The notes: generated by a model not told the origin, from the letters alone. A stretch of DNA of 64,000 nt from Candidatus Omnitrophota bacterium (GCA_022711115.1 JAKLFP010000001.1:261183-325182), one strand, 5' to 3'. Positions 15,191-59,901 are shown, numbered from the stretch's first letter. Numbers and translations: made by a program.

Positions 15191-15220
15191 CTGACGCGGT
15201 TCTTCTATAGACCGCGTCAG
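15191..15220 (+). terminator. perfect 10-bp hairpin (terminator or attenuator) between the two micro-ORFs
   Basis: CTGACGCGGT-tcttctatag-ACCGCGTCAG followed by TTGTCT. Confidence 0.35.
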
Positions 15221-15237
15221 TTGTCTGAGAGAATGTC

Positions 15238-19178: not shown

Positions 19179-19211
19179 CATCCGTTTAAATAGAAAGTTC
19201 GGTGTTTTAGT

Positions 19212-19835: not shown

Positions 19836-19837
19836 TC

Positions 19838-20167: not shown

Positions 20168-20183
20168 CCCAAGGAAGATCCTT

Positions 20184-38630: not shown

Positions 38631-39257
38631 CTACTTTTTAAATTGGAACGTTTTCAGGACATGCTCAAATACTGGCGTATAGTTGTCATACTGAGATCCT
38701 ATCGTTTCGAGCATTAACTCGTACAAACGACCCTTGCTTGTCAAATAAACTCGTATCCCTTTCAGCATAACCGGAGGGGCTTTCTCGCTAAACAGCGGAA
38801 AGGATTCATATTCATAAAGAGCCGAAACCGCTTTTTCCCCACCCACTTCTCGGGCTCCTTTATGGAGTACTTTAAATTTGGGTAGATTGGAATCCATTTT
38901 TAGATAAGCCTCCAGAAGATCGGGAGCGGTTTTCCCGCTTTCCAGCGGCCTTACGGTGGCATGAATAAGCGTCGTGAATCCATTTTCCGTATGAACAGGC
39001 CCGCGGAGATACACCAGATCGTATTTCTCCGTCCCACCCGAAACCTCCACAGGCGTCCAGCCCGTTTCAGGGTATTCAAATGTAAAATTGAGGGATGAAT
39101 TTTCGGCTTTGAACTGAACGTATTTCAGCATTATTTGACTCTGGCTGATTTTTTGGGCTTCCAGGAAATAAAATGTACATGCTCCCACTGTGATGGTCAC
39201 TATTATAACACCAAAAATCAGGAAGGGTTTTTTCCAGTTTTTTTTCTGCATGCTCAT
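38631..39257 (-). CDS. membrane-anchored hypothetical protein
   Basis: N-terminal TM (LIFGVIIVTITVGACTFYF) plus a roughly 170-aa extracytoplasmic domain. Last gene of the pilin-HExxH operon. Confidence 0.5.
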   Translation of the reverse strand: MSMQKKNWKKPFLIFGVIIVTITVGACTFYFLEAQKISQSQIMLKYVQFKAENSSLNFTFEYPETGWTPVEVSGGTEKYDLVYLRGPVHTENGFTTLIHATVRPLESGKTAPDLLEAYLKMDSNLPKFKVLHKGAREVGGEKAVSALYEYESFPLFSEKAPPVMLKGIRVYLTSKGRLYELMLETIGSQYDNYTPVFEHVLKTFQFKK

Positions 39258-43023: not shown

Positions 43024-43059
43024 TCAAATTCCTTTTTAGGCGAATTTTTGAAAAAATCG

Positions 43060-44331: not shown

Positions 44332-44404
44332 AGTTTCTTTTTTAAAAAGGAGGGACTGTTATTCTAAAATTTACTTATATAGAAAATATAACTATAAAAA
44401 AATA

Positions 44405-44494
44405 TGGCGGAGAGGGGGAGATTCGAACTCCCGAACCGCTTGCGCGGTTAACAGTTTTCGAGACTGCCGCAATCGACCACTCTGCCACCTCTCC
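44405..44494 (-). tRNA. tRNA-Ser (anticodon CGA)
   Basis: Hand-folded: acceptor GGAGAGG/CCTCTCC, anticodon stem GCAGT/ACTGT with loop CTCGAAA, long variable arm CCGCGCAAGCGG, T-arm GGGAG-TTCGAAT-CTCCC, and an encoded CCA. Confidence 0.9.
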
Positions 44495-44496
44495 AC

Positions 44497-44766
44497 TCAC
44501 GAATCGTCATTTCGACTGAGAATACCAAAACGTTCCTTCAATAGCCGGCGTCCCTGACCCGTCTTAAAGAAATTTTCTCTTTGCCTTGCTGCCGTATAAT
44601 CAGTACAACTTTCTTCAAAAACCAACCGCCATGGTCGACCTGCTTTCGTAGATCGCGTTCTCCCGGCATTGTGGGCCATGAATCGCAAATCAGCATTATT
44701 TTCACGGCTAGAACCAATGTAAAACTTCTTCGTTTTTTCACTGATCAGGACATAAATACAAGCCAT
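44497..44766 (-). CDS. small GIY-YIG nuclease (YhbQ/COG2827-like)
   Basis: IYVLISEKTKKFYIGSSRENNADLRFMAHNAG...RPWRLVFEE. The stop codon lies 2 nt from the tRNA-Ser 5' end. Confidence 0.8.
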   Translation of the reverse strand: MACIYVLISEKTKKFYIGSSRENNADLRFMAHNAGRTRSTKAGRPWRLVFEESCTDYTAARQRENFFKTGQGRRLLKERFGILSRNDDS

Positions 44767-44827
44767 AGATTCATTTTATCTTAGCCAGTTTTTCCGCCGA
44801 AGGCGGACCCGCCAAGCTTTGTGGCGG

Positions 44828-44895
44828 GCGAGACTGCCGCAATCGACCACTCTGCCACCTCTCCACTCACGAACCGCCACCTCGAATGAGAATAC
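44828..44895 (-). repeat. partial duplicate of the tRNA-Ser 5' half (nt 1-35) plus about 35 nt of upstream flank
   Basis: cgagactgccgcaatcgaccactctgccacctctccactcacgaa is identical to 44459-44503. Similarity continues degenerately to gagaatacc, including a relic ...FGIL... ORF end. Confidence 0.6.
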
Positions 44896-45132
44896 CAAAG
44901 TGTTTTTTCTATGCTATTCAAAAAGGATTCCTGAAATTATACGGGTTTCCATCCTTTTTGCAAAACACATATGCTTTATTGCTGCCTTGCGGCAATGTTC
45001 CTTCTGTCTTCGAAATGCTTTTATGCATCAGGACGTGTTGCGTGCTGCCTGTTCCGAAAACAGCGGGTGAAAACCCGAATCTTGGTTTGTGTACAAAAAG
45101 GTGAAACAGGATTATTTCCTGCAGTGAAATGC

Positions 45133-45753
45133 TTAAAAAAGAAACGGCAAAAGCCGCCAGCGCACTTGTTTAACGTAGGCCTGATATTCGGGATCCTGCA
45201 AAAGCATTTTTTCTTCGGCAAAAATCCGGAGAATCTGGCTAAGCAAGCACAATACGGCAACTAATCCATTATAAAGACTCGGCTGATTGATGATATAGCC
45301 TATACTGAAAATCTGATAGCTGGCATAGAGGGGATGCCGTACCCAACGGTACATCCCTCCCCGCTGGATCGCGCGATTAGCAGGAAGCATCCCAAAAGAA
45401 CGGTTAAGCGAAATAATCGCCGCGATCGTAAGCAAGCTTCCGATGATCTGCACCACAGTTGCGATCAGGCTGGTCCCGGCAGCTGTCGTTCGTATGAACA
45501 ACAGTATCGAAAAACTGCCCAAAAAAGAAGTAATAATATCCATCAAGCTCCAGGAAGTGGTCTTTGCGGCTTTACGGAAAACGGCAAAAACAAAAAAAAG
45601 AACCGCTTGTAAGATCAGAAGAGACTCGGAAATTTGCTGCCATCCTGTTAACCCCCAGACCTGCAGGCTATGCCCATAGATCCAAAAGGAAAAAAGAACT
45701 CCCCATGTGGTCCCACTTAGAATAAAACCCATTTTTTTAAATGCCGTTTGCAT
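45133..45753 (-). CDS. isoprenylcysteine carboxyl / phospholipid methyltransferase family protein
   Basis: MYRWVRHPLYASYQIFSIGYII...RIFAEEKMLLQDPEYQAY. Start at the ATG with a GGAG RBS. Confidence 0.7.
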   Translation of the reverse strand: MQTAFKKMGFILSGTTWGVLFSFWIYGHSLQVWGLTGWQQISESLLILQAVLFFVFAVFRKAAKTTSWSLMDIITSFLGSFSILLFIRTTAAGTSLIATVVQIIGSLLTIAAIISLNRSFGMLPANRAIQRGGMYRWVRHPLYASYQIFSIGYIINQPSLYNGLVAVLCLLSQILRIFAEEKMLLQDPEYQAYVKQVRWRLLPFLF

Positions 45754-45957
45754 CTTTTTCTCCTGATCCATTTCAACTCGGCATTGCCGCCCAACGGCAT
45801 GACGCTTAAAGACATTCCTTAAGACACGGCCTGTTAGACAAGCGCCGGTAGCACGCAAGAAAAACTTACACCTTGGGATTTGAAAAAAATTACAAGATCA
45901 GAAAATGTAAAAATCAGGAGGCATTTTAATTTCTGACCCCGAATTTTAAAAAAAGTT

Positions 45958-46323
45958 TCAAGACGGCTGGAGAGTATCGCCCACCTTCAGGTCGATTTTT
46001 TCAAGGCTCCCTGCGGGAAGTTCCACCACGGAGTAAGCATTCCAAACGACAGGCCCCAACCGATTGCGTTGAAAATGATGCGTGAGCTTCACAACCTGAC
46101 CTGCTTTGGTCAAATAGATCACATCAATCGCGTATCTCATCCCTAGCGAATGAATGGAATCGCATGGGACCAGCCAAAGGCCGTGTCCCGGCAACAGCTG
46201 ATCCGTAAAAAGCAACCCACGCATCCTGGAAAAAGGGGTTTTCGCAATCTTCAGGTTTTCCACAACAACTTCCCGGGTACGTGCCGTTATCAGCTTCATC
46301 GTATCCCCTTTCATCTTAAGCAT
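45958..46323 (-). CDS. DUF192 (COG1430) domain protein
   Basis: SRMRGLLF...GLWLVPCDSIHSLGMRYAIDVIYL. Its start overlaps the tadC stop. Confidence 0.6.
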   Translation of the reverse strand: MLKMKGDTMKLITARTREVVVENLKIAKTPFSRMRGLLFTDQLLPGHGLWLVPCDSIHSLGMRYAIDVIYLTKAGQVVKLTHHFQRNRLGPVVWNAYSVVELPAGSLEKIDLKVGDTLQPS

Positions 46324-47131
46324 TTTTGGCTGTATTTATTTTTTCTAAAAAAGGAATGATATTTAAAACAGAAGGCCCTATAAGCACGACAAAAATAGAC
46401 GGCATAATCAAAAAAGCGAGCGGGAATAATAATTTGATTGGTAATTTTAAGATCTTTTCACGCGTCCGAATACGAATCGTTTCCCTCAATAAAGCACTGT
46501 GATTTCTTAACGTATCGCTCAGCTTCATGCCCAGTTTTTCGGATTCAATGAGCGTAATGACAAAGGATTTTATATCCGGAACTTTGGTTCTATTGGCAAA
46601 ATTTCGAAAGGCATCTTCCGCAGGAAGCCCCACATTGATCTCGTAAAAGGTATAGCGCAATTCATTCGATAAAGGGGTTCCCTTCGTCTCTTCTGCTAAA
46701 CGGACCAGAGATGCATTGAGAGACATACCCGCCTCAAGGCAGACAACCAGAAGATCTAAAGTGGTCGGCAAGGCCTCTTCAATCAAGCGTCGATAGCGAC
46801 GGACCATATAAATTTTCAAAAAAAGTTTTAGCGATAGCCCTGCCAAAATAGCCATGAGAAGTTTTATGGCCACCGGTCCGGAAGCAGGAGCTGCTTGCTG
46901 CCACAAAATCGCAAAAAATATCGGGATACCTAAAAAAAGAAGATTTTCAATGTAGAATTTATGGGGTGAAATATGCGCGGCTTTTAAAACCTCCTCTTTA
47001 TATTGTTTCGCAGACGTCAAGATGCTTAAACGTTCCTGAAAGCGGTCTTTTTGGGCGGTGGATGTCAAAAATGACCAAACTCCCAATCCGACCGCAAGGC
47101 TAAACAACACGATCACAATCGCGAATATCAT
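46316..47131 (-). CDS. tadC: Flp pilus assembly protein TadC (T2SS-F domain)
   Basis: Polytopic GspF-like domain. Position after tadB. Confidence 0.8.
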   Translation of the reverse strand: MIFAIVIVLFSLAVGLGVWSFLTSTAQKDRFQERLSILTSAKQYKEEVLKAAHISPHKFYIENLLFLGIPIFFAILWQQAAPASGPVAIKLLMAILAGLSLKLFLKIYMVRRYRRLIEEALPTTLDLLVVCLEAGMSLNASLVRLAEETKGTPLSNELRYTFYEINVGLPAEDAFRNFANRTKVPDIKSFVITLIESEKLGMKLSDTLRNHSALLRETIRIRTREKILKLPIKLLFPLAFLIMPSIFVVLIGPSVLNIIPFLEKINTAKNA

Positions 47132-47146
47132 TTTCTCCTCTTACGC

Positions 47147-48112
47147 TTAAAAGGGAATTCTCAAATTGACCATTTTCTTTACGATCAAGGCCCCCATCAC
47201 CATCATCACCAGCGCAATCGTAACAAGATTGCGTCCGACTTCATTTTCAAACAAGGGCTTTAAATAACCCGGATTTAATAGGTTCAGGATCAAGGCAACA
47301 ACAAACGGTGCCGTAGAAATAATCCAACCGCTTAGCCGCGCCTGAGCTGTTAAAGCTTTCAGCTCCTTGCGCATGACCACACGCGCTGTGATGGTGGCTT
47401 CCAATTTGCTCATGAGTTCTGAAAGATTTCCGCCGGACTCCTGCTGGATGGCAACTCCGACCACAAAGGTTTTGGTGTCTTTGCTTCTTATTCGCTTGTA
47501 AAGCCCCGCAAGCGCATGCGCCATACTTTCTCCCATTTGCAGTTCGCCTACCACCGTTTGAAATTCTTTATTGATCGGATAGGGAGCATCATGGGAAACT
47601 CTTTCAAACGCGCTGGAGATACCAAGGCCAATCCCCACCGCCCCCCGTATGATCTGCAAAGCCATGGGAAAATGCTGGTCGAAAAGATCGACATATCTCG
47701 CATAACGATAGGTCAGAATACCGCTTGGCACAAAAAAAAGCGCCAGTGCCGCCGCGGGAACGGCAATGATATTGGGGATATGCGCTCTAACCAAAATAAG
47801 ATATAAGAACAAAGCTCCGATGAGCGAAATGAGCACAAAAACGCTCACCGAAATGCCCCATCCGCTAGCCTTAAGCATGAGATTAATCTTCGAGAAAAAA
47901 GCCTGTCGCAATAGAATTGCATTCAGTGCGCGTATGTCACTGTATTGGTGTTTCTTTTCAACCTCAAGATGCCCTTTCTTTTTTTTCTCTTCAACTTGTC
48001 CTTCAAAACGCTTTTGCAGAAAGGCCGCATCTCCCGCTGTTTTATCCAACAGGAAAAAAGTAATAAAAAAAACGGATCCGGCCAACAGCGCGGCTAAAAT
48101 AATAAATATCAT
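47147..48112 (-). CDS. tadB: Flp pilus assembly protein TadB (T2SS-F domain)
   Basis: GspF-like membrane domain downstream of cpaF. Confidence 0.8.
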   Translation of the reverse strand: MIFIILAALLAGSVFFITFFLLDKTAGDAAFLQKRFEGQVEEKKKKGHLEVEKKHQYSDIRALNAILLRQAFFSKINLMLKASGWGISVSVFVLISLIGALFLYLILVRAHIPNIIAVPAAALALFFVPSGILTYRYARYVDLFDQHFPMALQIIRGAVGIGLGISSAFERVSHDAPYPINKEFQTVVGELQMGESMAHALAGLYKRIRSKDTKTFVVGVAIQQESGGNLSELMSKLEATITARVVMRKELKALTAQARLSGWIISTAPFVVALILNLLNPGYLKPLFENEVGRNLVTIALVMMVMGALIVKKMVNLRIPF

Positions 48113-48124
48113 GAGGGTCTCGTT

Positions 48125-49441
48125 TTAAAGTGGTTTCAAAATTCGGCTTAAAAATTTTGGTCTTACTGGGGAGAAAACAAACTGACCGATCACCCTTCCT
48201 TTTTCATCAACCCCCTTTTCCTCGAATTGCATCACATCCTGAAGGCTGACGACGTCTCCTTCCATCCCCACGACCTCTGAGATCGATGAAATTTTCCTAG
48301 TTCCATCGGAATAACGTTTGATCTGGATCAAAAGATGCAATGCCGAAGCAATCTGGCGGATAATCGATAAATGAGTCAGATTGGCATTTCCAAGCAGCAC
48401 CATCGTTTCAATACGGCTCAATGCATCCCTTGGCGTATTGGCATGAACGGTGGTGAGCGAACCCTCATGCCCCGTATTCATCGCCTGCAACATATCCAAC
48501 GCCTCTTCGCCACGGCATTCGCCGATAATAATGCGGTCAGGACGCATACGTAGCGCATTGCGCAACAAATCCCGCTGGGAAACCCGCCCTTTGCCTTCCA
48601 CATTCGCGGGACGTGTTTCCAGACGGACCACATGCTGCTGCTGCAGTTGAAGCTCGGCAGCATCCTCAATGGTAATAATACGTTCTGTGTTCGAGATATG
48701 TGCCGAAAGGACATTTAAAAGGGTTGTTTTTCCCGTTCCTGTACCCCCGGAGATCAAAACATTTAATTTGCTTTCGACAGCGAGTTTGAGACACTCCGCC
48801 ACTTTATCATTCAGCGACCCGAGATGGAGAAGATCCTGAACCTTAAGAGGATCCTTTTTGAAACGACGGATGGAAAGCACGGGACCGTTCAGTGCCAGGG
48901 GTGGAATGATCGCATTGACACGTGATCCATCCGCAAGCCGTGCGTCAACCATGGGCGATGCCTCATCCACACGCCGTCCCACCGCCGCCACGATACGGTT
49001 AATGACATGCCTCAAATGCGTGTCATCCTTGAAGGTAATACCTGTCAGGATCAATTTCCCACGCTCTTCAACATAGACCTGTTTGTAACCATTGACCAGT
49101 ATTTCATCGATGGAAGATTTTGCCAGCAGAGGTTCAAGAGGCCCGAGGCCAAAGGTTTCATTTACGATTTCCTTGATAAGATCAGCTTGCTGGTAAGCAT
49201 TCAGGGCGACCTTTTCTTCTCCCACGATTTTTTTTACAAGCTCCGCAACCTGGTCACGCGCGTCATTGGCCGGAAGTTTATTGATCGCTTCAAGATCCAG
49301 ACGTTCAATGAGCTTCTGATGCAAGCGGAATTTCAGATTGTGGAAAAAAATATTTTGCCCTATTTCCCCGACGATTGGCTGAAAACCGGAAGCGCTTTCG
49401 CTGTGGGCGGATATTTGCTTTAGCCGGTCCGCGAGACTCAT
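48125..49441 (-). CDS. cpaF: Flp pilus assembly secretion ATPase CpaF/TadA
   Basis: [15 protein letters not shown] Walker A, Asp box, Walker B, His box (VirB11/GspE family). Confidence 0.95.
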
Positions 49442-50646
49442 GGATGGATCACCTTCTTAAGCGCTTGTTTGAATCCCAAAAACATCCGCATGTCTTTTTT
49501 TTCGGATTGGAAATCAGCTTCAATCTTTTTTGCGAAGTCTTTAAACTGAGCATTCAAAGGAGATCCGTGCGCGGCGTTAATAATCGCCTGTCCCATATTG
49601 ACGCTTTGACATGCGCCGGCATAGTCATTGCTGAAAAAGTGCGCGAAATTATACCTCAAAATTTCTTTTGCCTTGGACAGGTTGATGGCTTCGTATTTGG
49701 AGCTATAACGATTGATAATGATTTTTATCTTTTCAGGTGAGTATTTCAACTGCTCAAGAAATTCAAGGCACCGTGAAGCGCTTCTCAAGGAAATAAGTTC
49801 CAAGGTGCTTGTGATGAAGATATGGCACGAATTATCAATAATGGAAATCAACTGGTCGGTCAGACGGTAACCTCCGTCGATAAAAATATAATCAAAATAA
49901 ACCATAAAAGCATCGAGCATCTTTTCAATGATCGGGGATGTCAATTGTTCGATGTCTTCAATTCTTGCGGGCGCCGGTAAAATGGAAATCCCGTGTTCGG
50001 TCGGCGGCAAAACCCCGCGCAAATATTTATCATCAACACGGTCAATATTGTGAGAAATATCCATTAAAGAAAACTCGGGTTTGTAATTTAGAAAGAAGGG
50101 GATGTCACCCGCCTGAAGCGCCATGTCCCATAGCAGAACCCGCTTTTTGGTAAGTTTCGCTACGCTGATGGCAGTATTGACAGTGACAAAAGTGTTCCCC
50201 ACACCGCCTTTAAAATTAAGGAAGGTGTATACCTTCCCCAGTTTCCTCGAACTTTGCGGCGTCCCGCTCCGTCGAAACCGCTGTATCACTTTCAGGATTT
50301 CTTTTTCCTGAACCGGAAGTTCGATAAAATCCCGCATCCCGTACTTCACGAACTGAAGCGCATGAGGTTTAAGCTCGGGGGTCAGGATTCCCACAAGAGG
50401 AACGATATCACCCACCTTTTCCAGTTTGGAAATCAAATGCTGTAGCTCTTCATCGGAAAACGATCCGAAATCCACCAGGATCAACTGAGGGCCGTAGCGT
50501 AAAAACATTTCCTCTGTGGTTATTTTAAGCGGGCACAGGTCGAGTTTGCAACCGGATTCCGGATGTTTCCGGAAAAACTCTTCAAGGGTTTGCGCGTTTT
50601 TATAATCATTTGAAAAAATAATGGCGTTGATTTTCTGTACTTCCAT
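49438..50646 (-). CDS. cpaE: CpaE/TadZ-like pilus localisation ATPase
   Basis: N-terminal receiver-like domain plus a ParA/MinD-like domain with the deviant Walker A FLNFKGGVGNTFVT. Confidence 0.8.
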   Translation of the reverse strand: MEVQKINAIIFSNDYKNAQTLEEFFRKHPESGCKLDLCPLKITTEEMFLRYGPQLILVDFGSFSDEELQHLISKLEKVGDIVPLVGILTPELKPHALQFVKYGMRDFIELPVQEKEILKVIQRFRRSGTPQSSRKLGKVYTFLNFKGGVGNTFVTVNTAISVAKLTKKRVLLWDMALQAGDIPFFLNYKPEFSLMDISHNIDRVDDKYLRGVLPPTEHGISILPAPARIEDIEQLTSPIIEKMLDAFMVYFDYIFIDGGYRLTDQLISIIDNSCHIFITSTLELISLRSASRCLEFLEQLKYSPEKIKIIINRYSSKYEAINLSKAKEILRYNFAHFFSNDYAGACQSVNMGQAIINAAHGSPLNAQFKDFAKKIEADFQSEKKDMRMFLGFKQALKKVIHP

Positions 50647-50668
50647 AATTTCTCCTATGCTTGCTTTT

Positions 50669-52273
50669 TTAGCCTACAAGCGAGAATGGAACGAATAAAC
50701 TTATTTCATCGAAAATCTTCTGCAACGCGGCTTGAATTTTCGCAATATTGTTGGTGTCTTTAATATGATAATGCTCCTCAAGCCCCGAATATTGCGCGAT
50801 CAGGTCAAACAGCAGCTTCGTTGTCTTCTGCTGTTGTGTTGATCCGCCAAGATCCCCGAAAGTGATCGGGTAAACACGGATATTCTGTTCGATCGCCTTC
50901 GTTGCCTGCGCAAGGGTATAATTCCGGGCTAACGCCAATTCCGCCGCCGTTGCTTCCGATCCAAAACATTCGACTGCGCCACCGGGTGTTTTGGGTGCGC
51001 AGTTAGGCAATCCGTCCGTAAACACAATAATGACCGAAATGCTTCTCGAGGAAGTAGCGCTGCTGGTAATACCGCCGGCCGCGGTAAGGATCGCATCTCC
51101 GATATTGGTGTTTCCGTGGGGAATCGCAATAGGGCCGAGAAATTGTTCTATCGCCGGATCATAAGCTGCTGTGCCGTTATACTTATAGACAGGATTGGTG
51201 ACAACGGTCGCATCAGGAAGAGTAATAGGATCGGCCCGAATAAGGTTATGATAAAGCTCGCTATTGTTGAAAAGCGGCGTAAAAACGTTGTTTATATTGT
51301 CCTCCGTGACCGGGATCAGCGCAGGCCCCGACAATTTTTGGGTAACATGGCTTGCAAAATAATAAACCCCCGCCATATCCCCCAGATCACTCTCAGCGAT
51401 CAAGCCTTCCAAAAAATCAAGCGATGAATTCAGAACCACTTGTAAAGGCTGCGGGTATAAGGGAGGATTCGGTGCCGGAGCTAAAGGGCTAAAAAGCATC
51501 GGAAAGGACGTGCTAAAAGTCGGACGGCTGATAAAACTCTCCGTCTGCGGCCACACAGGATTGGGGGCGGTTATTTTGCCTGTACCATCCATCGTGGTCG
51601 TTCGAGGATAGCTGATATCATCCATGGAACCGGAATTGTCGATGACGAGCGCGAAATTGCGCGGGCTGAGCGAAGAAACGGAATTACGCGAAAAAGAAAG
51701 GCTTGCCACCCCGCAAATGTTCCCGAAAAAAGTCTGCACAGCGCCCCCTCCCATGCGAGTGACATGCACACGAAACGCCGTAATATCATGCAGCCCGATG
51801 CCTCCGCCCAGTAAATCTGCTGTCCGATCCGTAAACAACAGATTATGGGGATGGCCCGGCTTTTCATGGTAGGGATTCGTGTTGGTTAAATCAAACGTAC
51901 CGAATTGAAGCGAGATGGTCATGTCGGGATTATTACTAAGAACCTTGCTTTTGGCCATGACAGCCTCAGTGGTATCTTGCGTTCTCTTTCTGATTTTTTT
52001 GATGACGGTGAGATCACTTAGATTCTGCCCCGCTTTGGCCGCAGCGCGCATCTCGGTAAGAAAACTGGCCGCGGCAGTTAAGGCTCCCGAATCCGCTATG
52101 GATTTTAATTCCGTGGAAACGACCATGACGGCAGAGAGATCCACAGCAAGGGCCGCAAGCCCCAGTGCCGCCACCATCATCGCAATGCTATAAACCAAAA
52201 GCATTCCTTTAGCATTCTTTAAAACAAAAAATAATCTAGATATCGTAGAAATTGATCCTGTTTTGCGTTTCAT
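50669..52273 (-). CDS. TadG-like pilus-associated protein with vWA domain
   Basis: TadE/G-like N-terminal hydrophobic segment (LLVYSIAMMVAALGLAALAVDLS). vWA MIDAS motif VIDNSGSMDD. Confidence 0.65.
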   Translation of the reverse strand: MKRKTGSISTISRLFFVLKNAKGMLLVYSIAMMVAALGLAALAVDLSAVMVVSTELKSIADSGALTAAASFLTEMRAAAKAGQNLSDLTVIKKIRKRTQDTTEAVMAKSKVLSNNPDMTISLQFGTFDLTNTNPYHEKPGHPHNLLFTDRTADLLGGGIGLHDITAFRVHVTRMGGGAVQTFFGNICGVASLSFSRNSVSSLSPRNFALVIDNSGSMDDISYPRTTTMDGTGKITAPNPVWPQTESFISRPTFSTSFPMLFSPLAPAPNPPLYPQPLQVVLNSSLDFLEGLIAESDLGDMAGVYYFASHVTQKLSGPALIPVTEDNINNVFTPLFNNSELYHNLIRADPITLPDATVVTNPVYKYNGTAAYDPAIEQFLGPIAIPHGNTNIGDAILTAAGGITSSATSSRSISVIIVFTDGLPNCAPKTPGGAVECFGSEATAAELALARNYTLAQATKAIEQNIRVYPITFGDLGGSTQQQKTTKLLFDLIAQYSGLEEHYHIKDTNNIAKIQAALQKIFDEISLFVPFSLVG

Positions 52274-54158
52274 TGCCTGTGCCCTGCCCTTCCCCAACAA
52301 CCTCTTTTTGGATTCTTTCCTTGGCCTTCTTGGCCTTTTCTTTCTCCAGCTCTTCAGCTTTCCTGGCCTCTTTTTTCTTTCGTTCTTCGGTTTTCTTAAT
52401 CTCTTTCTTTGCCCGTTCTTCGGCTTTCTTAACCTCTTTCTTGGCGCGTTCTTCTGCTTTTTTGGCTTCTTTCGCCGCCTTTGCCGCGGCTTTTTTATCT
52501 TTTTCCGTTAAACGTCTGGCATCCTTATCCTCAAATTCCTTTGCCAGCGCTTTCTTGTAAGCGAGTGCGTCCGCTTTTTCAGCAGCCTTCCTGTCACGTA
52601 ATTCCTGCTGGGCTTTCAGATATTCCTGGCGCAATTCATCACGTTTGATTGTGCGGTCCGAAATACCTAATCCGGATTTGCGTTCATTTTCATAACGCGT
52701 GAGATATTCTTCCATAGCCAATGCCTTTGCGATCTCGAAGGGCGGCTCCGGAATTTCATTCATAGTAAACAACGGGTCCTCTCTCTTTAGGTCTCTGAGA
52801 TCAAAACTTTCCTTTTGGAGATCCACGATATGCGGCGTAATAAAGATCACCAGCTCAACGCTCGCGTGTTCGCTCGATTTGCTTGAGAAAAGCTTGCCGA
52901 GCAAAGGAATCTTCCGAAAACCGGGCACTCCGGAATCTGTATTGGTATTTCGATCCGCAATAATTCCGCCGATCACAAACGTTGTATCGTTATTGATTTC
53001 AACTACCGTATTGGCCTTCCGGCTGGTAATCGCGGGAATATTAAACCCGTTAGCGATAATACCATTCGCCTGGTCCAGTTCGCTGATCTCGGTTTGAAGA
53101 TCAAAACGGATCCTGTTGTTGTCTAAAATAGAGGGCGTATAAGTCAGCTTGGTACCGTATTCTTTATAAGTGACGTCCGTGGTATTGGAAGTCACCTGCG
53201 GGATAGGAAATTCTCCTCCGACAAGGAGATGGGCTTTGGAGCCATCCCGAACAAGAATATTCGGCTTGGCCAAAACTTTAACCCAACTTTCATTCTCAAG
53301 TAATCTGACGACCGCACCGCCCCACCAATTTTTGCTGTGATAGGAGCCCGTCCAAGTGGTTTTCGTGCCATCCTCCGGAAGAGCTAGAACAATATCTTGA
53401 TGATCGTCAGAAACCTTAGACATGACAGGCCCTAATCCACCGGGCATGAATGTCATCCCGAATTTTTCAGCAAGATACGCACCGTCAATGCTGAACTCAT
53501 TGTCCTTGGAGCGACTGATCTCAATGACCCGGATTTCCAAGAGGATCTGCTTTGCTTCATTGACTGTCACGATGCTAGCGCTGTCTTTGGAAAAGGCTTG
53601 CGACGTTTCCGCGATCTGTTTTTGCATCTCCACGGTATCGACATTGCCGCGGACCACATAACCTTTTTCGGTCGGAAAAACATCCACCTTGTTCTGCGGG
53701 GCGATCTTTGCCAAAGCCTCTTTCAAAACGGTCGGATCGCCAACGGAGGTCACATTGTACACATAGATGTCCCCGGCCTTGTCCCAAACCAGAAGGTTGG
53801 CCGCGCCTTTTGTTTTAGTGGAGATCAAGACCTCCTGCTTATTAACGACTGCGACATCTGCGACATCGGGTGCGGAAATGGCCACACGGCCCACTTCCCG
53901 GTTGAAATGAATCACATGGCTGTTCCCGCTGATGATCTGCAGGTCGCTCTTGCCGACAACTTTATTTTCACTCCACGCAGGTTCTTCGACAGCAGCCGGA
54001 AGGGACTGGGTTTCCTTGTTCTTTGAAAAAGCATCGGACGAAGGACCGGAAACCGGGACATTCTGAGGCGCGTCAGGAACGACTGCCACGCAAATCCCTG
54101 TAAAAGCGAAATTGGCGATAAGTAGAAAGATTCCAAACTTTTTAAGTAAAGTCTTCAT
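52236..54158 (-). CDS. rcpA: Flp pilus secretin RcpA/CpaC with a Lys/Glu/Ala-rich C-terminal extension
   Basis: Signal peptide, BON-like N-domains, secretin core (VVEINNDTTFVIGGII...PLLGKLFS). C-terminal KKAEERAKKE-type repeats. Confidence 0.9.
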   Translation of the reverse strand: MKTLLKKFGIFLLIANFAFTGICVAVVPDAPQNVPVSGPSSDAFSKNKETQSLPAAVEEPAWSENKVVGKSDLQIISGNSHVIHFNREVGRVAISAPDVADVAVVNKQEVLISTKTKGAANLLVWDKAGDIYVYNVTSVGDPTVLKEALAKIAPQNKVDVFPTEKGYVVRGNVDTVEMQKQIAETSQAFSKDSASIVTVNEAKQILLEIRVIEISRSKDNEFSIDGAYLAEKFGMTFMPGGLGPVMSKVSDDHQDIVLALPEDGTKTTWTGSYHSKNWWGGAVVRLLENESWVKVLAKPNILVRDGSKAHLLVGGEFPIPQVTSNTTDVTYKEYGTKLTYTPSILDNNRIRFDLQTEISELDQANGIIANGFNIPAITSRKANTVVEINNDTTFVIGGIIADRNTNTDSGVPGFRKIPLLGKLFSSKSSEHASVELVIFITPHIVDLQKESFDLRDLKREDPLFTMNEIPEPPFEIAKALAMEEYLTRYENERKSGLGISDRTIKRDELRQEYLKAQQELRDRKAAEKADALAYKKALAKEFEDKDARRLTEKDKKAAAKAAKEAKKAEERAKKEVKKAEERAKKEIKKTEERKKKEARKAEELEKEKAKKAKERIQKEVVGEGQGTGNETQNRINFYDI

Positions 54159-54928
54159 ACCTTCACCTTTTCCTTCTTAACTCCGCGATAAAGTTCGATC
54201 TCTGTTTGCTCCGGAAGTATGGGAATGATGGATGTTTGTTTCGTACCGACAATTTCATCAAGGCGCATGTAGGTGTCTTTCACGTCGCGCTCGGAAAACG
54301 GCCGTATACTGATGTCCAATTTGCCCTTTTTCATGGCATAGGCCATGATTTCCGCGCCTTCGGGCGTCACCGCCAGAGTCACAGTGACGGTTGAACCTCC
54401 TGGCATCCCTCCCGCCTGGGCCCCTGCTTGTTTCATCGGAGCCGCTTTCATCACCAGTATGTTTTTCATAATGGTCTTTGTCTCAAATTCCTTGGCGGAG
54501 GTATCCGTAAAAACAACATCCACACGTCTGCCAAATTTGAGGAGCCTCAGGGCGTCTTCTGAAATAGGCAAGCTTACCGTGGTCGCACGATAACCTTCGG
54601 GAATCATATTGGCAATATTGTCTGTTTCGTCCGCGAGATCAAAGCTCCTGATAACATTCCCCCGTTGAACGGCATTGCGAAGATTTTGTCCCACCACCGG
54701 CGCCAACTCCGTAAAGGCAGTGCTCAACTCTGTCCCTTTCGGCATCAACAGCAAACTGACATCGGTCTTTCCGATCGTATCCCCGATATCCAGATCCCGA
54801 ACGGCTGTCGCCACAAGAATGGCTTTAGGATCTTTTTTCAACTCGTTGAAGACATGGAAAATAACTCCCAGTGTCAGCAGGGCACATAGTACCGAAAGAA
54901 AAAAAATGGATCTTGAAGATAGTCTCAT
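54155..54928 (-). CDS. cpaB: Flp pilus assembly protein CpaB/RcpC
   Basis: N-terminal TM plus a SAF domain (AVRDLDIGDTIGKTDV). ATG chosen as start; the track uses a TTG two codons upstream. Confidence 0.85.
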   Translation of the reverse strand: MRLSSRSIFFLSVLCALLTLGVIFHVFNELKKDPKAILVATAVRDLDIGDTIGKTDVSLLLMPKGTELSTAFTELAPVVGQNLRNAVQRGNVIRSFDLADETDNIANMIPEGYRATTVSLPISEDALRLLKFGRRVDVVFTDTSAKEFETKTIMKNILVMKAAPMKQAGAQAGGMPGGSTVTVTLAVTPEGAEIMAYAMKKGKLDISIRPFSERDVKDTYMRLDEIVGTKQTSIIPILPEQTEIELYRGVKKEKVKV

Positions 54929-54977
54929 AGGCAACCTCTACGGTGCTCAAAGTGTTCAGGGGTTTGATGAATAAAAC

Positions 54978-56699
54978 TTATCCTTCGAATTTGCATGAAT
55001 CATCATCCGGATAAACAATACATAATTCTTCTTGACTGCAACTGCTGCGGTCTAACCGGCAAAGTTGGTTCGTCCCACAACGGGCATGATCATAGAGGCA
55101 GCAAGCGTCACTCTCTCCCCTTATCGTGCAGCGTTGTTCCAGAGTACATCCCGTGTTATATAATCGGCAGTTTTGTTCCTGAGTACAGTATGTCGCATTC
55201 AGCTGACACCGCTGATCGGGCGTACAACCGATACCGTAATACAGACATTCTTGCGTCTGTGTGCATCCAGTATGATAAATAGTACATTCCTGATCTTGAG
55301 TACATCCCGTGTGATAATACTGGCATTCCTGCGTCTGCGAGCATCCAGAGTGATAAATAGTACATTCCTGAAGCTGTGTACACCCTGTATGATTCAATCG
55401 GCAATTCTGCTCTTGGGTGCAATAGGTTGCATTCAGCTGACACCGCTGATCGGGCGTACAGCCAATATTGTGATACAGACATTCCTGCTCTTGAATACAT
55501 CCCGTGTGGTAATATTGGCATTCCTGCTCTTGAGTACATCCCGTGTGATAATACTGGCATTCCTGCGGTTGCGTGCATCCAGAGTGATAAATAGTACATT
55601 CCTGAAGCTGTGTACACCCTGTATGATTCAATCGGCAATTCTGCTCTTGGGTGCAATAGGTTGCATTCAGCTGACACCGCTGATCGGGCGTACAACCACT
55701 ATTGTAATACAGGCATTTCTGCTCCTGCGTACATCCCACATTATTCAATCGGCAGTTCTGTTCCTGAGAACATTCTTCTCCATGGATATCGCATAACTGG
55801 TCATCCGTACACCCTGTATGATAGTAGGAGCATTCCTGAAGTTGCGTGCATCCAGAGTGATAAATAGTACATTCCTGAAGCTGTGTACACCCTGTATGAT
55901 TCAATCGGCAATTCTGCTCTTGGGTGCAATACGTTGAATTAAGCTGACAACGCTGATCGGGAAGACAATTTACATTGAGAAGCAAGCATCGTTGATCCTG
56001 GGTGCATTCATTCCTTACCAAACAACATGCATCGCTTTCCCCACGGATGGTGCAAAGCTCTTCCTGGGTGCATAAGTCAGGATCGGTGGCGCATGTGCAA
56101 ATGCCCGTAAGATCGCAAAGTCTCTGAGGATCCGTCACCTCCTCCTCGCCTGGTCCTGTATCGACAGGGAGTTTTAAATTGATATTTCCGGATTCTGTGC
56201 TTTTCTCTACAAAAGCCGAAGAGCTGACCCGGGTCGTCAGGGTACTGAGTCCCCAGGAAGGCGGAAGAAAAGCGGTCGTAAAAATAGTTATTTGCCGGGA
56301 AATATTGACCTGCAGAGGATTATCCTTGATCGCCCCCGGCGTTCCGTTGACTCCGGGAACAAGAATTTCAATCCCGTTTCCAGTAGCCGGGGGAGCACTA
56401 AGTCCGCCGACCAAAGCAAGGCTGGCTGTGATACGCGCCGTACAATCATTGATCGCCGCTTGGATCGCTGCTTCCTTAGTGATCCCCAAAGGGGGAGTGT
56501 AGTTGGGATTAAGCCTAGGGTCTGTAGCAAGCATCCTCGCTTCATCGCGGGCAATATTGTTGATAGTGTTCCGGGTGGTTAACGAATGGCCTGCATCAAT
56601 AATCATAAGGCTTAAAGCAAGCAGCACAGGAATCGCCAGCACCGTTTCCACAAGCGCTTGTCCTAGTTGCCTCTTACCTCGAACCCCCCTCTGAAACAT
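54978..56699 (-). CDS. TadE-like pseudopilin fused to about 25 tandem 13-aa di-cysteine repeats
   Basis: N-terminus GQALVETVLAIPVLLALSLMIIDAGH (TadE/TadF-like). From about residue 194 to the C-terminus the protein is Cys-rich. The regular repeats are CTQEQNCRLNHTG, CTQLQECTIYHSG and CTPDQRCQLNATY. Confidence 0.7.
   Translation of the reverse strand: MFQRGVRGKRQLGQALVETVLAIPVLLALSLMIIDAGHSLTTRNTINNIARDEARMLATDPRLNPNYTPPLGITKEAAIQAAINDCTARITASLALVGGLSAPPATGNGIEILVPGVNGTPGAIKDNPLQVNISRQITIFTTAFLPPSWGLSTLTTRVSSSAFVEKSTESGNINLKLPVDTGPGEEEVTDPQRLCDLTGICTCATDPDLCTQEELCTIRGESDACCLVRNECTQDQRCLLLNVNCLPDQRCQLNSTYCTQEQNCRLNHTGCTQLQECTIYHSGCTQLQECSYYHTGCTDDQLCDIHGEECSQEQNCRLNNVGCTQEQKCLYYNSGCTPDQRCQLNATYCTQEQNCRLNHTGCTQLQECTIYHSGCTQPQECQYYHTGCTQEQECQYYHTGCIQEQECLYHNIGCTPDQRCQLNATYCTQEQNCRLNHTGCTQLQECTIYHSGCSQTQECQYYHTGCTQDQECTIYHTGCTQTQECLYYGIGCTPDQRCQLNATYCTQEQNCRLYNTGCTLEQRCTIRGESDACCLYDHARCGTNQLCRLDRSSCSQEELCIVYPDDDSCKFEG
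55090..55940. repeat. tandem 39-bp coding repeats with a higher-order unit of about 234 bp, inside the TadE-like gene
   Basis: Near-identical DNA blocks, e.g. ggtgcaataggttgcattcagctgacaccgctgatcgggcgtaca, recur at about 55420, 55650 and 55190. The reverse-strand ORFs in the track are repeat artefacts. Confidence 0.8.
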
Positions 56700-56725
56700 T
56701 TTATTCTACCTCTCATTCTCAAATT

Positions 56726-57304
56726 TTAGTCGAGCGAAGGCGCCGGCATGGGTTGGGGAAGAGGTGCAACAGAAGCCACAAACTGGGGCATGGTAATTGT
56801 CGAAGTGATCTGTCTCGCCGCCAAAGTCGGTATTAAGGAACCCCTCCCCAGAACATTACTAACCATTTGAGACACCGTTATAGTAACGAGTTTTGTGCTC
56901 TCTCCACCCTGCTTTTGCGCTGGTATAGTGCTCGTGCTGATCGTAATGGTGGGAGCGTTAGCTCCCGTCAAACCCATATTGGTCAAAATCTGGTTCATAC
57001 ATCCCAAGATGTAGGCATTGCCACCCGCTCCTTCGGGATTTTTGGTCATACTGGCAATGCGGGCCCCTTCCCGTGCCACCTGCGTCATCTCATGCAGTCT
57101 AAAGATTACCTGCGATAAATCAAAAATCCCCGCAAACATGAGGATATACATCGTGCTGCACACGAGGAGTTCCACAAGAACTTGACCGCGTGTATGATTT
57201 TTTTTCCTTCTTATAAGCACCTCTTTGACTGCCCCATTATTTTTTTCCATCTCCCCCACTAAGCCGTCTGAAATTTTACAGCAACGGCGTCCTTCCCCTC
57301 TCAT
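56726..57304 (-). CDS. TadE/TadF-like pseudopilin
   Basis: HTRGQVLVELLVCSTMYILMFAGIFDLSQV TadE-like N-terminal segment. The start is uncertain (alternative ATG at 57250). Confidence 0.65.
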   Translation of the reverse strand: MRGEGRRCCKISDGLVGEMEKNNGAVKEVLIRRKKNHTRGQVLVELLVCSTMYILMFAGIFDLSQVIFRLHEMTQVAREGARIASMTKNPEGAGGNAYILGCMNQILTNMGLTGANAPTITISTSTIPAQKQGGESTKLVTITVSQMVSNVLGRGSLIPTLAARQITSTITMPQFVASVAPLPQPMPAPSLD

Positions 57305-57427
57305 TGCGAAACACCCTCACCATGGTGTCTAAGCCTTCCTCACCTCTTGATGAGGAAGGCTTGTCGCTTTGGCAACCGTTTCAACGATCACCCCACCATG
57401 TTAAGCGACAAAAAACAACCGCGTTTT

Positions 57428-57577
57428 TTAAAAAGTCGCGGCAAGCCAGGTCGAAAGCCAGTTAAACGCAGCAGTAATTTGACCCGAAAACGCTGTTACT
57501 GCAACGATCACGACCACCGCAACCAACCCGATGATCAATAAATATTCAACTAACCCTTGCCCCTTTTGATTCTTCAT
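57428..57577 (-). CDS. flp: Flp family type IVb pilin (49 aa, not in the ORF track)
   Basis: MKNQKGQGLVEYLLIIGLVAVVVIVAVTAFSGQITAAFNWLSTWLAATF. Canonical G/xxxxEY prepilin processing motif plus a hydrophobic stem. GGGGGA RBS. Confidence 0.8.
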   Translation of the reverse strand: MKNQKGQGLVEYLLIIGLVAVVVIVAVTAFSGQITAAFNWLSTWLAATF

Positions 57578-57950
57578 TGCTTGATCCCCCTTTTTATTTT
57601 TACTTTTATTTTCATTACTTTTATTTTTATCTCTGAAGCTATTACAAATATAACCAAATGTTTTTAAAATACAAGTCTTTGCTTCAAATATTTAATAAGT
57701 GTAATCTATTATTATTACTAACTATATATATAAAAAATACTCATACCTTAGCTTGTTATAGCAAAAATATTTTTATTTTTATGAATTTTTAAAAAGTTCC
57801 TGTATTTGGCCATACATAAAAAAACAATAAATAGTTAACATCCATAACTCCTGAAAACAAGAAAGTCTTTGTCTATCCTTAAGGGAATCGACAATATTTG
57901 AAAATTATTGAGTATTTTATTGGCTAAAAATGAGGCTGGGGTTAAAAAGG
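57578..57950 (-). promoter_or_regulatory. AT-rich leader/promoter region upstream of flp
   Basis: About 370 bp, markedly AT-rich relative to the rest of the window. Contains the direct repeat TTACTTTTATTTT-cat-TTACTTTTATTTTT immediately 5' of the RBS. Confidence 0.4.
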
Positions 57951-58128
57951 TCACGTCCACAAGCCCCTTGTGGCATTTACAAGCCGTCTTTCAAAACAAA
58001 ATTTCTCTTTTCCTTTAAGGGCCACAGCCGTCGCACCATGTTCAGCTTCAGTGTAATAACGAATTGCCCTGGTGATTTGCGTAAAAGAAAGTGAATGGTT
58101 TTTGGGAGGACAGTTGCGGCTGGAAAAA

Positions 58129-59901
58129 TTAATCGTTCTCGGTGCAGACGCGGTTTTTACCGGCTCTCTTGGCTTTATAGAGAGCCTCGTCCACGCGGTG
58201 CACCATCGGGTCCGGCACATTTTCTCCGGAATGAAGTGTGGCAACGCCCAGGCTGATCGTCACCGGAATATTTTTTTCTTCCCATTCGAATTTCATTTTC
58301 TCAATTTCTGAACGAAGGCGTTCGGCTGTACACTGCGCCGCTTCTGTCAGGCCTGCCTTGCGAAGCATGATAATGAATTCCTCGCCTCCGTAGCGGGCCG
58401 CAAAATCGATTTCCCGAAAGGGACGCCGCTTGCGGATATGGCTGAGAAGGACCGAAGCTGTTTTTTTCAAAACCATGTCCCCGGCAGGATGACCATAAGT
58501 GTCGTTGATCTTTTTGAAATTATCGATATCAAAAAGGATAATCGAAAGGGGCTCCTTGCGAACACTTGCCTCACGAACAATCTGGTTCATGATCACACGA
58601 AAATGGCGGATCACGTAGAGTCCGGTGAGCCCGTCGCGGGTGGCCAGATGAAACAGATGTGTTTTTTCCCGGGCGGCCGTGATTTGGACATAGATCGCCG
58701 AAAAAACAAAAAGGCAAAAAATAAGAAGCAACGGGTAGACCCCATAAAACCAGTAATGCGCTTTATAAAAGATCAGAAAACAGAAGAGGAACCAACCGAT
58801 CCCGAGCAGAAGCCCGGAAAGAAGAGACAGGGCGCCTCTTAACAGGATGAATAAAATGGACGCCAGCAAGCCAATACCGATCAGGCAAAGGATATTCAGC
58901 CAAAAGGGTGCCGGCCGGATCCAGTGCCCGGTCATGGCGGCGTTCATGATGTCTGCATAAACGCCAAGCGCCGGATAGGAAACATCAAACGGCGTCGTTT
59001 TAAATTCCGCCTGATTTTTGGCAACAAGCCCGACCATGCATATTTTCCCCGCGATCTTTTTGGGATCAATGACAGGTTTTAGCCCATCCCGGATCGCGTA
59101 AAAACTGTGGATCAGATCCGAAGAGCTGTAGCGCGCGATCCTTTCGCCCCATCCCCCCGTCCACGGAATGATGACTTTCCCATGATGATCGCCCCAGGCA
59201 ACCCAGTCTTTGGGTAGTGGGATCCTTTTTTTGAGAAAATCATATGCGGCAGGAAGAACAAAAAACGGATAAGTCTCCGTCCCATAACTCAAAAAAGGAT
59301 TGAACCGCCTCAAAATCCCGTCGGGATCTGCGGGCAGTTCGCGATGCCCGATGGCTTGTGCGTGATCTTTTATTTTCGGAAGCGCATGAACCCATGTCAT
59401 TTTTCCCTCGCCTTGATCCAGAACCACGGGCATTCCATGGATCCAGAATTTTCTTTCCTTCTGCGGTTTCAGGTCTACGGGCAAATAAACAGGCGTTGTG
59501 ATCCGTGCAAAAACCTGCGAAAGATCCCTATCCTCTTTGGGGTCGGTGGGTTCGGAAAAATTAAAATCAAGAACGATCGCGGCCGCTTTCCATTCATCCA
59601 ATAAACGCAGCATGGCGGCATGATAACTGCGCGGCCAAGGCCACGGTCCTATCTCATCCAGCACCGTTTCGGAGATCTCAATAAGAACGATATCCCGGCT
59701 GAACTGTGTTGAATGGGCGAATTTCATGAAGGTATCCAGAACGATATGCTCCAGACGATCCAATTGATGAAATGCCAGCAGAAAAACAAAAGCGGCGATA
59801 ATGGCGAGGTAGGTTCCGAAACGAAGCCAGCCCCGATAGCGGCGGGAACGGCTGCGGCCAAATAATTTTTCGGTCGTTTCAGTCGTCTCGTGAGAATCCA
59901 T
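58129..59901 (-). CDS. CHASE2-sensor diguanylate cyclase (CHASE2-TM-GGDEF)
   Basis: Periplasmic CHASE2 (VLIEISETVLDEIGPWPWPRSYHAAMLRLL), 3 TM, GGDEF (RYGGEEFIIML). Confidence 0.85.
   Translation of the reverse strand: MDSHETTETTEKLFGRSRSRRYRGWLRFGTYLAIIAAFVFLLAFHQLDRLEHIVLDTFMKFAHSTQFSRDIVLIEISETVLDEIGPWPWPRSYHAAMLRLLDEWKAAAIVLDFNFSEPTDPKEDRDLSQVFARITTPVYLPVDLKPQKERKFWIHGMPVVLDQGEGKMTWVHALPKIKDHAQAIGHRELPADPDGILRRFNPFLSYGTETYPFFVLPAAYDFLKKRIPLPKDWVAWGDHHGKVIIPWTGGWGERIARYSSSDLIHSFYAIRDGLKPVIDPKKIAGKICMVGLVAKNQAEFKTTPFDVSYPALGVYADIMNAAMTGHWIRPAPFWLNILCLIGIGLLASILFILLRGALSLLSGLLLGIGWFLFCFLIFYKAHYWFYGVYPLLLIFCLFVFSAIYVQITAAREKTHLFHLATRDGLTGLYVIRHFRVIMNQIVREASVRKEPLSIILFDIDNFKKINDTYGHPAGDMVLKKTASVLLSHIRKRRPFREIDFAARYGGEEFIIMLRKAGLTEAAQCTAERLRSEIEKMKFEWEEKNIPVTISLGVATLHSGENVPDPMVHRVDEALYKAKRAGKNRVCTEND

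Follow-up and report, generated by a model that had tools for sequence, protein, structure and literature searches.

A predicted Tad pilus operon of a Candidatus Omnitrophota bacterium with a cysteine-repeat minor pilin and a terminal DUF192 gene

How could a bacterium assemble a Tad (type IVc) pilus from a locus that encodes its prepilins and no prepilin peptidase? The question is raised by positions 45958-59901 of a 64,000-nucleotide (nt) stretch of DNA from Candidatus Omnitrophota bacterium, which was analysed over its whole length, is called the window here and provides all coordinates not assigned to another locus. Exact sequence matches put it on contigs of 361-521 kb from a single species known from metagenome assemblies (GCA_035390585.1 and entries in ENA, JGI and Logan), whose proteins NCBI assigns to Candidatus Omnitrophota bacterium. 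An original prediction had described this region as a complete Flp/Tad pilus locus that lacks the aspartic prepilin peptidase TadV/CpaA and is bracketed by a CHASE2-GGDEF cyclase and a DUF192 gene. Our analysis suggests that the region is likely to be a functional Tad pilus operon of the order flp-tadE-modular minor pilin-cpaB-rcpA-tadG(VWA)-tadZ-cpaF-tadB-tadC-DUF192, with its peptidase encoded elsewhere and the cyclase an incidental neighbour.

The operon type and its cysteine-repeat minor pilin

All large open reading frames (ORFs) of 45958-59901 lie on the minus strand, and each gene assignment was backed by Pfam. They are ordered as CHASE2-GGDEF, flp, tadE, a second TadE-like gene, cpaB, rcpA, tadG-VWA, tadZ, cpaF, tadB, tadC and DUF192. 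This gene order, its intactness and its tight packing had been predicted and were confirmed by the ORF calls and Pfam; the eleven operon genes from flp to DUF192 are intact, closely packed and free of frameshifts. The hallmarks of a Tad system that were found are Flp, CpaF with the split TadB/TadC pair, TadZ, RcpA, RcpC/CpaB, TadE-type pilins and TadG. No gene in or beside the operon was annotated by Pfam as TadD or RcpB, with no model specific to either having been run. The core Tad genes are thus intact, but the word "complete" applies to this locus in a relative sense only, since neither TadD nor RcpB is evident from the Pfam annotation.

The eleven-gene order recurs in six relatives (L086, L088, L163, L164, L165 and L166), which together with the window make up seven clade loci. 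TadZ has about 22 clade relatives at an identity of at least 43%, and among clade loci that share this layout, peptidase gene missing, the TadZ proteins are only 44-60% identical. A background sample of 80 Tad loci from many phyla was drawn from the matches listed in a genome scan with CpaF. Among these matches, CpaF was 52-59% identical to the CpaF of many other phyla, and none came from Omnitrophota. The full-flank subset consists of the 49 of the 80 loci with at least 8 kb upstream and at least 5 kb downstream of cpaF. A metagenome scan with the TadZ clade alignment returned distant TadZ only (22-36% identity) and no clade members, and it missed an identical TadZ on JGI contig Ga0209507_1001882. 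Tad loci have already been reported in Omnitrophota: in co-culture, Velamenicoccus archaeovorus expresses its locus, and among 116 Velamenicoccia species, 74 have TadBC and RcpA genes (PMC10066038). Taken as a whole, the locus thus belongs to a known kind. Within that kind, it represents an eleven-gene operon subtype with DUF192 as its end gene and a hypervariable modular minor pilin that carries cysteine repeats; the subtype is so far tied to Omnitrophota, a tie that comes from the annotation of the window itself and from the similarity of TadZ.

The most unusual gene of the locus is that of the minor pilin (54978-56699), which encodes a modular TadE/TadF-like protein of 573 residues. Two tadE-like genes had been predicted, and both products do have a TadE N-terminus, but in the second the Pfam TadE match (PF07811) is confined to residues 13-55, the pilin domain extends over residues 1-190, and a 380-residue cysteine-rich module with 60 Cys follows. 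Residues 232-517 of the protein (55149-56006) form an array of 22 in-phase, perfect C-x5-C-x6 repeats of 13 residues, in which the spacing of the Cys residues is strictly 6,7,6,7. In the repeat consensus C-T-Q-[ED]-Q-x-C-x-[LYI]-[YN]-[HN]-[TS]-G, the residues C1, Q5 and C7 are invariant. The array is bracketed on both sides by a cap motif, CTxE[EQ][LR]CTIRGESDACC, and residues that could form a hydrophobic core are nearly absent from the module (12% AVILMFW). In the DNA, 234-nt super-repeats make up the array, and Tandem Repeats Finder gave periods of 39, 78 and 234 nt with 2.5-2.9 copies at 82-88% identity. In two independent short-read assemblies (L003 and L004, same species), the contig breaks inside this gene, at the equivalent of about position 55460 of the window. 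The super-repeats are the likely cause of these breaks, and the repeat copy number in the window's own assembly may be inexact.

A gene of this family was found in the second-pilin position at every locus of the operon type, with products of 456, 470, 525, 543, 573, >515 (a truncated copy) and 1171 residues. Across the family, the pilin domain (residues 1-190) is 35-52% identical to that of the window protein; the C-terminal module differs among the relatives both in sequence and in length, from about 250 to about 1000 residues, a roughly four-fold range. The 1171-residue homologue (L163:2290-5805) contains 158 Cys, more than twice as many as the window protein, together with DxDxDG motifs resembling calcium-binding sites, and in some copies DxDxDG (thrombospondin-type-3-like) motifs are located between the pilin domain and the repeats. 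The family is rare. A word-indexed search of 5.8 billion proteins gave four relatives (P0016-P0019), each 32-34% identical and carrying a TadE N-terminus. When 1.84 billion cluster representatives were searched exhaustively with the repeat module by HMMER, 54 weak matches were obtained, two of which were TadE-fused (P0039 and P0042), while most of the others were large proteins with 26-residue periods. A profile search with the alignment of the N-terminal pilin domain (A4) returned nothing, though P0016-P0019 share this domain, and the family census is thus incomplete. In a metagenome scan with the alignment of the cysteine-repeat pilins, patterns were matched and no relative was confirmed. 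One paper of the Omnitrophota literature was checked for the word "cysteine", which was absent from it.

In Pfam (E up to 10) and in PDB (phmmer), the cysteine module had no match. Beetle antifreeze proteins (Tenebrio, Dendroides) are made of 12-13-residue CTxSxxCxxAxT coils that stack into a disulfide-cored beta-helix, and they offer a lead that is so far unconfirmed: they share with the array a period of 12-13 residues, Cys at i and i+6, Thr after the first Cys and a scant hydrophobic core. Against this likeness, no insect antifreeze family was found in the Pfam scan (E up to 10) or by phmmer against PDB, and to our knowledge an invariant Gln at repeat position 5 is not part of the beetle motif. 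Minor pilins that are modular and located at the tip are known as a concept (PMC10191384). PilB and PilC of Streptococcus sanguinis likewise combine a class III signal and a Glu5 N-terminus with an unrelated, grafted C-terminal module that is presumed to be displayed (PMC10191384); the module described here differs in that it consists of tandem repeats of 12-13 residues with two Cys each, matches nothing in Pfam or PDB and is carried by a pilin of the TadE/F type (T4cP, type IVc pilus). By analogy, the cysteine-repeat module may be displayed at the tip of the pilus together with TadE and TadG-VWA.

DUF192 and the missing prepilin peptidase

The operon's final gene (45958-46323) encodes a small DUF192 protein (PF02643, E 8e-17), which passed the gathering score of the family with 61.6 bits against a cut-off of 27. 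The start of this gene is ambiguous. From the ATG at 46323 the protein has 121 residues and there is an 8-nt overlap with tadC; the ATG at 46299, which gives 113 residues, is preceded by a better Shine-Dalgarno sequence (AAAGGGGA), is the start used by NCBI and lies 16 nt after the tadC stop. With an overlap of 8 nt or a gap of 16 nt, tadC and DUF192 are closely spaced either way. The translational coupling claimed for this pair therefore stands as a tight and genuine linkage, but the overlap itself depends on the choice of start, and the better ATG lies beyond the stop.

Conservation of this linkage in relatives had been proposed as a check, and it was found. DUF192 follows tadC directly in 7/7 clade loci, with a gap of -14 to +8 nt in the six relatives and of -14 to +16 nt across the clade. 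In the background sample, DUF192 was present in 21 of the 49 full-flank loci, and in 24 of the 66 loci with at least 4 kb downstream; it was nearly always on the same strand and right behind the tadB-tadC pair, and the distance from tadC was at most 464 nt in 28 of the 32 loci measured. The DUF192-bearing loci came mostly from Acidobacteriota and also from Verrucomicrobiia, Gemmatimonas, Caldilineaceae and Pelotomaculum, so that at the phylum level the gene is seen at Tad loci of Acidobacteriota, Verrucomicrobiota, Gemmatimonadota, Chloroflexota, Bacillota and Omnitrophota. In the searchable literature, DUF192 at the ends of tad operons was mentioned only once and in passing, being noted near the 3' end in Bulleidia extructa and Helcococcus ovis (PMC12786226). 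DUF192 is unmentioned in two studies of Tad systems (bioRxiv 10.64898/2026.07.08.737194 and PMC10066038).

No signal peptide, N-terminal hydrophobic segment or membrane segment was found in any Tad-linked DUF192 copy, and a PDB sequence search with the window's copy gave no match. The family (PF02643, COG1430) to which this copy is assigned includes the structures 3PJY and 3M7A. The crystallised DUF192 proteins are described as signal-peptide-bearing or periplasmic (PMC3608174), whereas the Tad-linked copies have no signal peptide. The product therefore looks like a small cytoplasmic protein, and we infer that it is a conserved accessory of one Tad subtype.

The operon encodes three substrates for a prepilin peptidase, since Flp and both minor pilins carry a cleavage motif with Glu5. 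Flp (57428-57577, 49 residues; Flp_Fap PF04964, E 1.5e-8; Class_IIIsignal) has a 6-residue leader, MKNQKG, followed by QGLVEY. The canonical G/xxxxEY site that had been predicted is thus present, with Glu5, and KGQ[GS][LM]VEY is kept in the flp genes of the clade. The TadE-like minor pilin (56726-57304, Pfam TadE PF07811), which has 192 residues, or 174 from the NCBI start, has the processing site HTRG/QVLVE (motif G/QVLVEL), and the 573-residue pilin has QLG/QALVE (motif G/QALVET). The common motif of the three proteins is G/Q-x-L-V-E.

A peptidase of the A24 family, to which TadV and CpaA belong, was not found at the locus. A Pfam search of all ORFs in the window with at least three predicted transmembrane segments detected none and matched transporters, TspO, CrcB-like and methyltransferase proteins instead. 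A custom A24 hidden Markov model was built from 25 TadV-like genes inside other Tad loci, and four of the model's matches were confirmed as PF01478; applied with --max to every six-frame ORF at least 40 residues long, it gave a best window match of only E 0.92. No A24 gene was found in the 10 kb past each end of the window either, which brings the DNA covered to about 84 kb. The predicted absence of TadV/CpaA from the locus is therefore real, but it is not the notable anomaly it was taken for. A24 was encoded nearby in 38 of the 49 full-flank background loci and missing from the other 11 (22%), and it was found in none of the six clade relatives (0/6). Experimental precedent exists in Bdellovibrio, in which the tad loci lack TadV and an unlinked PilD of the type IVa pilus (T4aP) cleaves Flp1 (bioRxiv 10.64898/2026.07.08.737194).

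That the genome has such an enzyme is suggested by the window itself. A 383-residue protein (39279-40430, minus strand) carries a classical type IV prepilin signal, KKG/FTLVELLIAAAII (G/FTLVE), followed by a Gly/Ser-rich linker and an unannotated C-terminal domain. The presence of this pilin-like protein implies that the genome should encode a PilD-type A24 enzyme elsewhere. By analogy with Bdellovibrio, the prepilin peptidase of the Tad operon is most likely shared, unlinked and of the PilD type. The genes beside that of the 383-residue protein encode a TPR protein of 447 residues (40405-41748), about 4 kb downstream of the operon and not conserved in the relatives, and a weakly PsbP-like protein (38631-39257).

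Could the operon instead be self-sufficient, with DUF192 or another operon product acting as a non-A24 prepilin peptidase in place of TadV? All seven loci of the operon type have DUF192 and no A24, and DUF192 has no assigned function, which speaks for this idea. It is opposed by the background loci, where 17 of the 21 full-flank loci that carry DUF192 also encode A24; on this co-occurrence, DUF192 was rejected as a substitute for the peptidase. Prepilins are cleaved by polytopic aspartic proteases (TadV, PilD) on the cytoplasmic side of the membrane, whereas the Tad-linked DUF192 proteins are small and soluble and have no membrane segment. The genome would need an A24 enzyme for the G/FTLVE protein in any case. 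We regard a self-sufficient operon as extremely unlikely.

A different reading of the same absence is that the locus is a decaying, non-piliating remnant that has lost its peptidase, or that Flp, with its 6-residue leader, is used unprocessed. In favour of this reading are the lack of a peptidase in 84 kb and the leader MKNQKG, which is unusually short compared with leaders of 13-25 residues in the relatives. Decay is hard to reconcile with eleven intact and tightly packed genes without a frameshift, or with a cleavage motif and Glu5 that are kept in all three pilins. The layout lacking a peptidase gene is also maintained among relatives whose TadZ proteins are only 44-60% identical, which implies purifying selection. 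Decay or unprocessed use of Flp is thus very unlikely, and cleavage of the three prepilins by an unlinked enzyme is the preferred reading.

The flp leader, the neighbouring cyclase and c-di-GMP

The gene at the other end of the region (58129-59901) encodes a 590-residue protein with CHASE2 (Pfam E 1e-40) and GGDEF (PF00990, E 3e-38) domains. The GGDEF domain has a GGEEF active site with an RxxD I-site five residues upstream (motif REIDFAARYGGEEF at residue 505), and the protein looks like an active cyclase. It is separated from flp by 551 nt that comprise the intergenic region and the flp leader (57578-58128) and are AT-rich (GC 0.387); the predicted position of the cyclase, directly upstream of this leader, was correct, and the gene is on the same strand.

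From this position, control of the pilus by cyclic di-GMP (c-di-GMP) had been deduced. In its fullest form, the idea is that the cyclase senses an extracellular signal and makes c-di-GMP, which would act on CpaF, TadZ or the flp leader and so control the operon or the machine. The intact GGEEF and RxxD sites and the same-strand adjacency are what such control would call for, and the Tad pili of Caulobacter are known to be under c-di-GMP control. A further GGDEF protein, stand-alone in this case, is encoded in the window (4166-5011, plus strand, 281 residues, E 4e-44), which indicates that the organism uses c-di-GMP and also that diguanylate cyclases are not rare in its genome. The adjacency is not kept in the relatives, where its conservation had been suggested as a check. 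A CHASE2-GGDEF gene lies upstream of flp in 0/5 of the relatives with a visible upstream flank (L086, L088, L163, L164 and L165), which have a CoA ligase, an ABC transporter, Ysc84, ZnuA and a hydrolase/MarR pair there instead. When the GGDEF and CHASE2 halves were compared with all collected loci, matches came only from the window's species and from one Acidobacteriaceae locus, where the gene lies downstream; a GGDEF gene is thus nearby in 1 of the 80 background loci. The 551-nt leader gave no Rfam match at gathering or relaxed thresholds, c-di-GMP riboswitches included; Pfam detected no PilZ domain in any operon protein, and a regular expression found no MshEN motif in CpaF. The deduction of c-di-GMP control was therefore not borne out. 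We consider it improbable that the cyclase controls the pilus in this way; c-di-GMP control of the operon, perhaps through a receptor of another type, is conceivable and at present unsupported, and the cyclase appears to be an upstream neighbour by chance, in this species only.

The leader itself points to a separate transcription start for the pilin. The flp gene is probably transcribed from a sigma-70-type promoter of its own, located about 75 nt upstream of the ATG (TTGTAT-N16-TATATT), and AAAGGGGGA was identified as the ribosome-binding site (RBS). In a scan for promoter and terminator consensus sequences, the counts were not above those of shuffled sequences. The spacers upstream of flp are long in the relatives too (328-763 nt), and they aligned poorly, with no kept element other than the RBS.

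A second element lies behind flp. The 123-nt spacer between flp and tadE (57305-57427) was identified as a structured RNA by folding against shuffles: its minimum free energy was -53.1 kcal/mol (z -5.4), none of 200 shuffles was as stable (0/200), and it includes a perfect 14-bp hairpin, GCCUUCCUCAUCAAGAGGUGAGGAAGGC. The structure is predicted to stabilise or attenuate the transcript and thereby to determine how much flp RNA there is relative to downstream RNA, and it fits a common layout in which the pilin transcript is stabilised, or transcription is partly terminated, before the machinery genes. L086 and L088 have no more than about 25 nt at this place, which makes the structured element specific to this species. 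In the relative L164, flp is present in three tandem copies (L164:3662-4190).

The pilus machine, its surroundings and known Tad systems

The remaining operon genes encode the envelope and motor parts of the machine. CpaB/RcpC (54155-54934) was identified by the Pfam families RcpC and SAF, and the 640-residue RcpA secretin (52236-54158) by Secretin and T2SS-T3SS_pil_N. The TadG-like protein with a VWA domain (50669-52300; Tad PF13400 and VWA) has an uncertain start that gives 511, 534 or 543 residues. They are followed by the ParA-like ATPase TadZ/CpaE (49438-50646; AAA_31, CbiA and ParA), the motor ATPase CpaF/TadA (48125-49441; T2SSE, E 3e-64), and the platform proteins TadB (47147-48112) and TadC (46316-47131), each with one T2SSF domain. 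In the relative L164, a single 1051-residue ORF in the secretin position (L164:6835-9990) matches both Secretin and VWA and resembles a fusion of RcpA with TadG or a read-through without a break.

The secretin had been credited with an unusual tail of 110 residues made of Lys/Glu/Ala-rich repeats. The charged repeat tail is real but longer: about 180 residues follow the secretin domain (52239-52778), and the last 140 are 67% K/E/A/R. In this extension, a PRPPFE..ALAxEE..RYEN segment that is kept in the relatives comes before the charged tail with three 33-nt tandem repeats that encode three 11-residue repeats. Charged tails of 123-129 residues are present in the secretins of L086 and L088, and an RcpA secretin of Acidobacteriota (L025:6260-8689) has a C-terminal tail of 331 residues that is 53% K/E/A/R, which means that long charged secretin tails recur outside Omnitrophota. 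Judged from these sequences, the tail is a recurrent but variable feature that tandem duplication has lengthened in the window's secretin.

Directly downstream of the operon (41863-45858, minus strand) are genes for an ICMT/PEMT-like membrane methyltransferase and two paralogous GDSL-family hydrolases, and a tRNA-Ser(CGA) gene (44405-44494) abutted by an 89-residue GIY-YIG ORF (44497-44766). A second PEMT-like gene is located at 20184-20927. None of these methyltransferase, hydrolase, tRNA and GIY-YIG genes is kept next to tad in the relatives. The downstream methyltransferase was considered as a pilin-modifying partner and rejected, as it lies beside the operon in no relative. Farther away (11135-20927, plus strand), the window encodes ArsP-type permeases, a CDF cation efflux protein, an Amt ammonium transporter, TspO, a DMT_6 protein and a PEMT-like protein, which are unrelated to the pilus.

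Taken together, these features suggest how the pilus may be made. The three prepilins would be cleaved by an A24 peptidase encoded elsewhere, most likely a PilD-type enzyme that serves the G/FTLVE pilin-like protein as well. Transcription of flp would start from its own promoter in the AT-rich leader, and the very stable hairpin behind flp would raise the pilin transcript relative to the machinery genes. CpaF, acting on the TadB/TadC platform and positioned by TadZ, would polymerise Flp through the RcpA/CpaB channel. Assembly would be primed by a tip complex of TadE, the 573-residue modular pilin and TadG-VWA, and the cysteine-stapled module of 13-residue repeats would thus be placed at the pilus tip as a contact surface for host, prey or substrate. 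DUF192 would be made together with TadC and may act on the platform or motor side rather than as a peptidase.

Several observations weigh against this reading. The pilus is predicted from its genes, and the A24 search covered the window and 10 kb on each side, so that a peptidase elsewhere in the genome is an inference. The tip location of the cysteine-repeat pilin was assigned by analogy only, and since its Glu5 is kept, the protein could also sit along the fibre. An AlphaFold model of the full 573-residue pilin (6 sequences) was helical with a predicted local distance difference test (pLDDT) score of 53.6, while a model of the cap and 11 repeats (single sequence) showed strands with a 13-residue period at a pLDDT of 38.1; both scores are too low for use, and the two models contradict each other. 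The role given to DUF192 is guilt by association for a family with no known activity. Diguanylate cyclases act in trans, which makes the missing synteny weak evidence against control by the cyclase, and a regulatory tie to the cyclase may exist in this one species.

Omnitrophota are uncultured, ultra-small bacteria thought to be predators or parasites, and the Tad pilus is among the few contact organelles proposed for them. Tentatively, the repeat array may be an undescribed disulfide-stapled rod or solenoid that forms the business end of the Tad pilus in this operon subtype, a host or prey probe or adhesin of variable length, and DUF192 may belong to the core of a widespread Tad subtype as a so far unrecognised cytoplasmic accessory; we hold these two proposals, taken jointly, as possible but doubtful. 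A hypervariable cysteine-repeat tip pilin would offer a concrete molecule for tests of host recognition in Omnitrophota, and DUF192, which directly follows tadC in about 40% of the cross-phylum sample, is a candidate for a missing component of the Tad machine. The absent peptidase, which follows a known pattern, and c-di-GMP control, which is unsupported, would not alter current understanding.

Compared with the Tad systems of Aggregatibacter (flp-tadV-rcpCAB-tadZABCDEFG) and Caulobacter (pilA-cpaA-K), the operon shares the G/XXXXEY site of Flp, the TadE/F cleavage motif, RcpC/CpaB, RcpA, TadZ, TadA/CpaF and TadG, as well as the platform split into TadB and TadC with one T2SSF domain each. It differs from them in having no tadV in or near the locus and no evident rcpB or tadD. 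The minor-pilin genes directly follow flp instead of standing at the 3' end, and the 380-residue cysteine-repeat module, the charged secretin tail and the terminal DUF192 gene are further differences. The Tad systems of Bdellovibrio bacteriovorus and of Velamenicoccus archaeovorus and other Omnitrophota are machines of predatory or parasitic lineages, and the TadB and TadC proteins of Omnitrophota group with Bdellovibrionales homologues (PMC10066038). In Bdellovibrio the tad genes are scattered over several loci and include a TadZ-TadA fusion, whereas in the window they form one compact operon.

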